Below are positions 6,960-8,088 of a stretch of DNA of 8,944 bases, piece by piece. The first letter of the stretch is position 1, and the number at the start of each line of letters is the position of its first letter. The DNA comes from an uncultured archaeon (GTDB lineage Archaea > Asgardarchaeota > Jordiarchaeia > Jordiarchaeales > Jordiarchaeaceae). Location: NCBI GenBank assembly GCA_964510585.1, contig CAZECW010000031.1, forward strand, positions 1-8,944, given 5' to 3'. The notes under the pieces were generated by a model that saw nothing but the letters and a program-made list of their open reading frames with translations, did not search any database and was not told the origin of the DNA. A program made the translations under genes and the position numbers.

Positions 6960-7310
6960 TTGAAATTATATAGAAACCGTTACATAGCCTTCAAAATTAT
7001 TAGTGAATCGACTTTTTCAGCAGAGAGAATTGTTGATTGTATATGGAGAATGCTACTCAACCTTTTTGGGGAGGTTGGGGCGAGTAGAACAAATTTCTGG
7101 TTAATAGAATATAATCCAGAAAAAGGGGAGGGAATTTTGCGTTGCACACATACGAGTGTTGATATGATGAAGGCAGCACTAGCAACAGTAACCGAGTTAA
7201 ACGGGTCACCACTTATAATAAATGTTCTAGGTGTCTCGGGTACAATAAGGGGTGTCCGGAGATTTTTCAAAAATAGTTATAGAGAAATAGAGAAGTTTAA
7301 TAAGAGTTGA
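6960..7310 (+). CDS. rnp2: Ribonuclease P protein component 2 (Pop5/Rpp14 family)
   Basis: RYIAF.I, LFGEVGAS, GILRC and LGVSGTI motifs; adjacent to rpp30. TTG start with a GGGGAG SD; an in-frame TAG at 6942-6944 excludes an upstream start. Confidence 0.92.
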   Translation: MKLYRNRYIAFKIISESTFSAERIVDCIWRMLLNLFGEVGASRTNFWLIEYNPEKGEGILRCTHTSVDMMKAALATVTELNGSPLIINVLGVSGTIRGVRRFFKNSYREIEKFNKS

Positions 7311-7325
7311 AAGGTACTTTTATTC

Positions 7326-7387
7326 TGGGGATGATGTTACCGTCCCAGACGGAGCCAATATGAAGAACCCGTGACAAAACTGACCCA
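7326..7387 (+). ncRNA. Box C/D 2'-O-methylation guide sRNA (D' guide predicted to target 23S rRNA G2251, E. coli numbering)
   Basis: Terminal stem UGGG(7326-29)/CCCA(7384-87); box C AUGAUGU(7331-37); 12-nt D' guide UACCGUCCCAGA(7338-49); D' CGGA(7350-53); C' AUGAAGA(7360-66); 13-nt D guide ACCCGUGACAAAA(7367-79); box D CUGA(7380-83). The D' guide forms 11 bp (one G-U) with the P-loop sequence CUGGGGCGGUA. Confidence 0.85.
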
Positions 7388-7410: not shown

Positions 7411-8088
7411 ATGAGATTGAGCGCATACCAAAAAAAGGGAGATATGACAGAGGCTCAAAAGGAAGCTTACGGCAAACTTGAAAGAAAAGTTTTAGAGCAA
7501 GGAGAAGTTATACAGAAGCAGAGTCTTAGAATCAAGGAACTTGAAAACTTGGTCGAGCAGCGAGAAAATGAATTAGCACACCTCAAAAGAACATACGAAC
7601 TTGAAATTCAGAATCTCGGCGACCTTTTAAACCAGCTTAAGAGCCAGTCTGAAGACCAAATAAACAAAATAAAGAGCCTAGAGAGCAAAATGAAAGATGA
7701 ATCAGATGATCACAAGTATCGGGAAGAGGATTTAACTTTTAAAATACGTAGCCTTGAGAAAAGGATTACTGAACTGGAAAGCCAAGCCAGGGAAAAAGAT
7801 GAGATAATAAATGAACTAAATCAGCAATTAGACATGACAGCCGCAAGAATCTCAGACTTGGAGAAAACAATCAAAGATAAAGACTCAAAACTGGCTTCAA
7901 TAGAATCCTTGATAATGGAGGACGTTAATTACAAGCCCTACTTCATAGTTAAAAAATACGGTTCTAGCAACATACAAGATATTAAAAAAACACTGGGATT
8001 ACAAGAGGGAACAGTAAGACGCATAGTACTTGAACTTGAGAAAAAGGGGTTAGTTAGGGTGGACGGCGACCATATTCACCTTGTGTAG
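7411..8088 (+). CDS. Hypothetical protein: long coiled coil with a C-terminal winged helix-turn-helix domain
   Basis: Residues about 20-170 are E/K/Q/L-rich with heptad periodicity. The C-terminal ~55 aa (SNIQDIKKTLGLQEGTVRRIVLELEKKGLVRVDGDHIHL) match the wHTH pattern with an L..KGLV wing. GGAG lies before ATG 7411; alternative start ATG 7444. Confidence 0.8.
   Translation: MRLSAYQKKGDMTEAQKEAYGKLERKVLEQGEVIQKQSLRIKELENLVEQRENELAHLKRTYELEIQNLGDLLNQLKSQSEDQINKIKSLESKMKDESDDHKYREEDLTFKIRSLEKRITELESQAREKDEIINELNQQLDMTAARISDLEKTIKDKDSKLASIESLIMEDVNYKPYFIVKKYGSSNIQDIKKTLGLQEGTVRRIVLELEKKGLVRVDGDHIHLV

Follow-up and report, generated by a model that had tools for sequence, protein, structure and literature searches.

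A probable dual-guide box C/D sRNA gene beside pop5 in an uncultured Asgard archaeon, with predicted targets at G2251 and helix 89 of 23S rRNA

Positions 7326–7387 on the forward strand of contig CAZECW010000031.1 (GCA_964510585.1) very probably encode a 62-nt dual-guide archaeal box C/D sRNA, whose D′ guide would select G2251 of 23S rRNA and whose D guide would select the equivalent of E. coli 2459. Reading its guides against the rRNA of close relatives, we find that it most likely directs 2′-O-methylation at G2251 and at this helix-89 base. The window, meaning the whole stretch of DNA that was analysed, has a length of 8,944 nt and is contig 31 of a 3.78-Mb MAG that is 96% complete. The observations that we bring to this assignment are the architecture of the element, its conservation, covariation in its stem, complementarity of the guides in the correct register, covariation between guide and target, and the presence of genes for the three core proteins.

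Architecture and conservation of the element

The element has the layout of the archaeal C/D class (Table 1). Box C and the CUGA of box D, together with a 4-bp stem, make up the K-turn-capable terminal motif of this class, and internal D′ and C′ boxes delimit guide spacers of 12 and 13 nt, close to the class norm of about 12. The same layout is found in orthologues. It departs from the C/D consensus in a D′ box that reads CGGA versus CUGA and in a D spacer of 13 nt versus the optimal 12. A sequence-only reading of this DNA had proposed such an sRNA here, and the four boxes, stem, bulge and 53-nt span from C to D all lie at the coordinates it gave. The K-turn contacts that it listed (sheared G·A and A·G, U·U, G-C and U7337-A7379) are likewise present in the letters. 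It had further explained the non-consensus last base of box C by the final K-turn pair. This explanation holds in many lineages, in which base 7 of box C pairs with the nucleotide preceding box D as U-A, G-C or A-U, but it has exceptions in Asgard family f15 (A·C) and in genome G006 (A·A).

Table 1. Features of the predicted sRNA gene and its neighbours, in window coordinates
Feature	Position	Strand	Remarks
pop5 (RNase P protein Rpp14/Pop5)	6960–7310	+	Pfam PF01900, E 1.6e-24; directly upstream of the sRNA
TATA-box-like element TTTAATAA	7296–7303	+	within the 3′ end of pop5; centre about 26 nt upstream of 7326
Predicted dual-guide box C/D sRNA gene	7326–7387	+	62 nt; between pop5 and the next ORF
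Terminal stem, 5′ half, UGGG	7326–7329	+	pairs with 7384–7387 (T7326-A7387; G7327–29 with C7384–86)
Bulge G7330-A7331-U7332	7330–7332	+	3 nt; overlaps box C
Box C, AUGAUGU	7331–7337	+	seen in sequence; invariant in five congeners; UGA core invariant in the wider alignment
D′ guide UACCGUCCCAGA	7338–7349	+	12 nt; antisense to 23S P-loop (helix 80); N+5 is C7345, opposite G2251 (predicted target)
Box D′, CGGA	7350–7353	+	degenerate; GA kept
D′–C′ loop, GCCAAU	7354–7359	+	6 nt; unconstrained
Box C′, AUGAAGA	7360–7366	+	seen in sequence; invariant in congeners
D guide ACCCGUGACAAAA	7367–7379	+	13 nt; antisense to 5′ strand of 23S helix 89; N+5 is C7375, opposite the E. coli 2459 equivalent (predicted target)
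Box D, CUGA	7380–7383	+	seen in sequence; invariant in congeners
Terminal stem, 3′ half, CCCA	7384–7387	+	seen in sequence; covariation
Downstream gene	7411–8088	+	225 aa; weak Pfam matches below cut-off: a coiled-coil family, plus a C-terminal TrmB/MarR helix-turn-helix; not part of the sRNA

Conservation of the element was strong among close relatives. A motif tailored to the layout had a single occurrence in the 3.78-Mb genome and none in five Markov shuffles, but because this motif was written post hoc, we consider conservation the better test. The element was found at the same place in all five congeners, with boxes and D′ guide identical and with a D guide that differed by 1 nt in one genome. 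Conserved boxes and guide downstream of pop5 in relatives, which the sequence-only reading had named as a check, were thus kept in five of five genomes. The flanking proteins (pop5 and the downstream product) are 62–96% identical among these congeners, with lows of 62–73%. The D′–C′ loop was the sole internal part that varied (GCCAAU, AUAAAG or UAUAAG), and the flanks varied too. Across other lineages, the length of this loop ranges from 3 to about 25 nt.

The guide is also retained in more distant archaea. We searched 400 Asgard genomes with a pattern in which a C or C′ box is followed, after four unspecified bases, by the guide core and the D′ GA; this gave one match each in 62 genomes, compared with 2 of 400 for a reversed control. 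The D′ guide core CCGUCCCAG is kept in these 62 Asgard genomes and also in many MAGs of Bathyarchaeia, DPANN and Thermoprotei. Matches were unevenly distributed across Asgard families: they occurred in every sampled genome of f1 (5/5), f2 (5/5) and f15 (4/4), in most genomes of f17 (4/5), f5 (22/31) and f25 (7/12), and rarely in the two largest families sampled (1/135 and 2/89). A scan of prokaryotes with one genome per species returned at least 119 matching stretches. Among the 80 listed, most were from Bathyarchaeia, with others from Freyarchaeota/Jordarchaeia, Baldrarchaeum, Micrarchaeota, Iainarchaeum, Altiarchaeales, and Nitrososphaerota-labelled and Thermoprotei MAGs. About 14 of the matches listed were bacterial, a number expected by chance.

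Covariation in the terminal stem gave further evidence for an RNA structure. Across 26 distinct sequences, the stem scored 0.60, compared with a mean of 0.24 in shuffled alignments; none of 500 shuffles reached the observed value, and controls slid along the alignment scored 0.34 or less. Existing family models did not capture the element. An Rfam search of the whole window at E ≤ 1 returned no match, and a search with the short stretch returned only matches below the gathering score (given in brackets after each bit score), namely snoPyro_CD RF00095 with 17.3 bits (45), sR7 RF01310 with 11.4 (37), sR9 with 11.1 (36) and sR36 with 7.9 (55). Architecture and conservation both support a box C/D sRNA between pop5 and the following gene, as had been proposed, and on these comparative grounds we regard 7326–7387 as a genuine RNA gene.

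Predicted targets of the two guides

Since the host MAG contains no assembled 23S or 16S gene, we read the targets from the 23S of two congeners, G005 (a complete genome; 23S gene L037) and G004 (23S gene L038). Alignment to E. coli rrlH placed P-loop residues C2248–G2253 at L037 2381–2386 and C7345 opposite G2251. The sequence ACUGGGGCGGU, which the sequence-only reading had given as E. coli 23S 2247–2257 with the N+5 position on G2251, was confirmed against rrlH, and the alignment bears out that the D′ guide is set in the register to methylate G2251 as its predicted target. However, the 11 consecutive base pairs that had been claimed were not found in the genus. That count had used the target sequence of E. 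coli. The two trustworthy congener 23S genes read GCUGGGGCGGCA at the P-loop flank, and on them the D′ guide forms nine contiguous pairs (positions 2–10, with one G-U opposite G2253), beyond which position 11 is an A·C mismatch and position 12 pairs as U-A.

We rejected a GGUA version of this site carried by a partial 23S in congener-assigned MAG G001 (L039, G001:C194:1063–2750), which had no megablast match and only about 74% blastn identity to the 23S of the genus. L039 carries long insertions and its source MAG has 8% contamination; L039 probably stems from contamination or in any case does not belong to the rRNA of the genus. The GGUA version also occurs in G068, a genome of another family.

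Conservation, rather than the extent of pairing, carries the case for G2251. Against LSU and SSU rRNA (4.7 kb), 538 of 2000 shuffled guides (27%) matched as well as the D′ guide, so the match alone is not significant. In orthologues, a CUGA, CAGA, CGGA or CCGA directly follows the guide, and these D′-type boxes at the same offset fix the D′ box and its register. Guide position 11 tracks 23S position 2257 in the genomes with both a matched sRNA and a 23S: in f2, f8 and f15 a guide G faces C, and in f5 a guide A faces U. We note that these matched pairs come from eight genomes, as several sRNA-bearing MAGs contain no 23S. The guide also fits the archaeal family of P-loop sRNAs, which have a 12-nt guide with the core C-C/U-G-Y-C-C-C-A-G immediately upstream of a D or D′ box. 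We consider the G2251 assignment credible because of the deep conservation of the guide against a universally conserved target, the tracking of position 2257 by position 11, and the same core in published archaeal sRNAs.

It is also conceivable that this is a real C/D sRNA whose D′ half does not methylate in the host genus, because it is degenerate, acts only as a chaperone or needs U2257, and that the helix-89 D guide is the sole active one. The duplex in both trustworthy congener 23S genes, in which nine pairs including a G-U are followed by A·C, would be compatible with such a loss of activity, as would the CGGA box and the lack of significance of the D′ match alone. However, duplexes of roughly 8–10 bp can support methylation in archaeal sRNPs, orthologues have the same G-U, and the Rfam consensus for eukaryotic snR67 likewise has a CGGA D′ box beside its P-loop guide. 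Moreover, no other part of the sRNA is as well conserved across phyla as the D′ guide, and this includes the genus, where the adjacent loop drifts. We therefore consider a non-methylating D′ half unlikely, and G2251 remains our predicted target for this guide.

The pairing opposite G2253 shows a pattern of its own. U7343 occupies this position in the host, and U is kept in most copies from Asgard, Bathyarchaeia, DPANN and Thermoprotei although C would pair perfectly; C is found instead in only about one fifth of the Asgard matches. The conserved G-U sits two positions from the G targeted for methylation.

The D guide, which the sequence-only reading had left unassigned, pairs through 10 contiguous Watson-Crick base pairs with UUGUCACGGG, the 5′ strand of helix 89 in the G005 23S. 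Its N+5 position falls on the base aligned to E. coli 2459 in rrlH, which is G in the host lineage. A match of this strength was reached by 23 of 2000 shuffled guides. Helix 89 varies between Asgard families and the D guide varies in step, giving four matching guide–target states: GUCACG with guide CGUGAC in f1 and in genome G009 of f2, GUCGCG with CGCGAC in f8 and f15, GUCGUG with CACGAC in f5, and GUCGCA with UGCGAC in f25. The N+5 register moves by 1 nt or more between lineages, within E. coli 2458–2460. We consider that the assignment of the second guide to helix 89, with its covariation, would be a modest addition to knowledge.

This covariation across lineages had to be qualified because 23S contains a look-alike of the target. 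A near-invariant site close to helix 93, GACCGUCGUGAGACAG, resembles the helix-89 strand (both have a GUCRYG core, at L037 2591–2602 and 2724–2735, respectively), and owing to this resemblance one guide can pair with either site. The helix-93-proximal site pairs about as well or better with the guides of f5, f8, G006 (f2) and one Bathyarchaeia genome, and the preferred site seems to differ between lineages, suggesting that members of a single sRNA family have switched targets.

These pairings raise the alternative that the true target of the D guide is the helix-93-proximal sequence (E. coli ~2592–2603) or a tRNA, with helix 89 matched only through likeness. A tRNA target would be easily overlooked in this assembly, as tRNAs are poorly recovered; aragorn and the Rfam tRNA model detected only 5–7 tRNA genes in the 96%-complete genome. 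Among these 5–7 tRNAs, in a scan that was not exhaustive, the best guide matches scored 6 or less. Perfect-complement 9-mers of the two guides occurred elsewhere in the genome 12 and 7 times (own antisense strand included), which is no more than chance, and no candidate stood out. Against a helix-93 target, helix 89 scores 10 in the host genus, all Watson-Crick pairs, compared with 5 for the helix-93 site, and the guide changes along with helix 89 in f1, f2 (G009), f15 and f25 while the helix-93 site is almost invariant. We regard this alternative as very unlikely for the host and retain helix 89 as the predicted D target.

The 23S genes used here differ in length. L038 of G004 (3910 nt, partly N-masked) carries an insertion of about 820 nt relative to L037 of G005 (3086 nt), located at about L037 2060, and in G068 and G130 the 23S carries insertions that lie at or inside the GGGAUAACAG/helix-89 region. 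The insertions of G004, G068 and G130 look like rRNA introns beside the peptidyl-transferase centre.

Genomic setting, core proteins and proposed mechanism

The sRNA gene lies in an RNase P protein operon, as the sequence-only reading had stated, with the gene order rpl15e, RNA-binding protein, rpp30, pop5 and then the sRNA. The pop5 stop is 15 nt before the sRNA stem, and the next ORF starts 23 nt after the sRNA. Counting the two genes as linked when box C lies no more than about 150 nt past the end of pop5, we found the sRNA immediately downstream of this gene in Asgard families f1, f2 and f15 and at about 12 Bathyarchaeia loci. With three Asgard families and about a dozen Bathyarchaeia MAGs, this linkage spans two phyla, and the recurring placement beside pop5 is a modest addition to knowledge. 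The 225-aa downstream gene follows the sRNA in the host genus only; in f15, a gene with a JAB domain comes directly after it. Elsewhere, the sRNA occurs in unrelated contexts: its upstream neighbour is a class I tRNA synthetase gene in f5 and a beta-CASP nuclease gene in Iainarchaeum.

The short distances to both neighbouring genes, the recurring pop5 linkage and a report of L7Ae binding to mRNA K-turns (PMC5539422) would accommodate chance boxes or a cis-acting K-turn in the pop5 3′ UTR or the leader of the next gene, bound by L7Ae for regulation, but we find either highly improbable given that the same RNA occurs in those unrelated contexts, that both guides are conserved beyond what a K-turn alone would explain, and that the layout occurs once in the genome and not in shuffles.

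The sRNA may have a promoter of its own. The TATA-box-like element TTTAATAA would be a candidate, judged by its sequence and position, and A/T-rich boxes are present about 25–35 nt upstream of sRNA copies in other lineages too. We note that conservation of TTTAATAA is not clean evidence for a promoter, because the element overlaps pop5 coding sequence.

The host genome encodes the proteins of an archaeal C/D sRNP. Contig 60 carries the fibrillarin and Nop5 genes next to each other, and contig 18 carries two genes of the L7Ae family. In bacteria and mitochondria, G2251 is modified by stand-alone methyltransferases of the SpoU family, RlmB in E. coli and Pet56/Mrm1 in mitochondria. These enzymes yield the same chemical product at the same nucleotide but recognize it by protein alone, whereas the route predicted for the host is RNA-guided. 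We found no RlmB in the 96%-complete host genome. Its sole SpoU-type methylase belongs to the TrmJ family (215.6 bits; cut-off 167) and, with 46 bits, falls far short of the RlmB cut-off of 160. The search thus turned up no stand-alone enzyme for Gm2251.

Under the established model of C/D sRNPs, L7Ae would bind the terminal C/D K-turn and the internal C′/D′ K-loop, and Nop5 and fibrillarin would assemble on the L7Ae-bound motifs. Each 12–13-nt guide would then pair with pre-23S rRNA, and fibrillarin would methylate the 2′-OH of whichever target nucleotide pairs with guide base 5, counted upstream from D′ or D. By this rule, the D′ guide would pick G2251 in the helix-80 P-loop, and the D guide would pick the E. 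coli 2459 equivalent on the 5′ strand of helix 89. For the host, we infer transcription of the sRNA, RNP assembly and both methylations from the genomic evidence. Because domain V contains both sites, next to the peptidyl-transferase centre, it may be that the sRNA also keeps the two 23S segments together during folding.

Relatives in archaea and eukaryotes

To our knowledge, Gm2251 is among very few rRNA modifications present in all three domains. It is made by a dedicated enzyme in bacteria and mitochondria and by a guide RNA in archaea and eukaryotes. Within this picture, a conserved G2251 guide in a genome apparently without RlmB adds an Asgard data point, and the current view of how Gm2251 is made is unchanged. 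The gains are the annotation of a previously unannotated RNA gene and the assignment of a second target in helix 89. For C/D sRNAs of Asgard archaea, we found no publication in the literature searched.

Guides for this nucleotide have been predicted in other archaea. Dennis et al. 2015 (PMC4644070) predicted guide-directed methylation of alignment position G2520, which corresponds to E. coli G2251, in three of seven archaea. Three sRNAs in Additional file 1 of that paper, sR107 of T. tenax, sR04 of N. equitans and sR45 of M. kandleri, are of the same class as the host sRNA and have the same predicted target and N+5 register; we linked them to the G2520 prediction by guide sequence and not through the paper's own table. 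Their guide cores are nearly identical to that of the host, reading AGCCGUCCCAGU-CUGA in T. tenax and GGCUGUCCCAGG-AUGA in N. equitans, both with U opposite G2253, and GCCCCAGC in M. kandleri. The partner guides differ. In T. tenax, the P-loop guide occupies the D position and the D′ guide is unrelated, and in N. equitans and M. kandleri the P-loop guide is accompanied by a GAGCC-type guide, whereas the partner in the host and in many Asgard genomes is the predicted helix-89 guide.

Haloarchaea provide a further parallel. In Grosjean et al. 2008 (PMC2584109), an H. volcanii sRNA is predicted for Gm1934, equivalent to H. marismortui Gm1950 and E. coli Gm2251, and a 2024 review (PMC11542601) gives H. 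marismortui Gm1950 as "aFIB + sRNA" among detected rRNA Nm sites. The Haloferax sRNA is archaeal and would guide 2′-O-methylation of the same universally conserved P-loop G, but in a phylum that differs from that of the host. The sequence-only reading had presented an RNA-guided route to G2251 as the point of interest. Our comparisons support this function as a prediction, but the route is not new, having been predicted or assigned in archaea in all three of these publications. The sRNA is an ordinary, well-supported addition to a guide family already predicted in other archaea.

The same reading had also suggested a counterpart of the eukaryotic guide for this site, which our comparisons support only as functional equivalence. 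In yeast, Gm2619 (equivalent to E. coli Gm2251) is guided by snR67 (PMC11121408). The snR67/U31 (SNORD31)/AtsnoR35 group, Rfam clan CL00053, guides the equivalent P-loop G, as the host sRNA is predicted to do, and the snR67 consensus in Rfam has the D′ guide followed by a CGGA D′ box, as in the host. The second targets differ, being Um2724 for yeast snR67 and, by our prediction, helix 89 for the host sRNA. When the clan models (RF01177, RF00089 and RF01281) were run on the short stretch, snR67 scored 15.2 bits (E 0.29; gathering score 55), and the U31 and snoR35 models gave no match at E ≤ 10. The snR67 score comes from box C, the CGGA D′ box and the target-constrained guide. Homology is therefore not demonstrable at this score; because the similarity is confined to the boxes and a guide constrained by its target, homology and convergence with snR67/U31 are indistinguishable.

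Hoeppner and Poole 2012 (PMC3511168) place the snR67/U31 clan in LECA and describe only weak similarity of LECA snoRNAs to archaeal sRNAs. One could imagine a single ancient orthologous lineage of P-loop guides, often located after pop5, older than the split between Asgard archaea and Thermoproteota (Bathyarchaeia) and directly ancestral to the snR67/U31 clan. We consider this scenario quite unlikely. If true, it would provide one of the rare cases in which a single guide RNA can be followed from archaea into LECA, and selection, for instance for product release, would account for the near-universal G-U opposite G2253.
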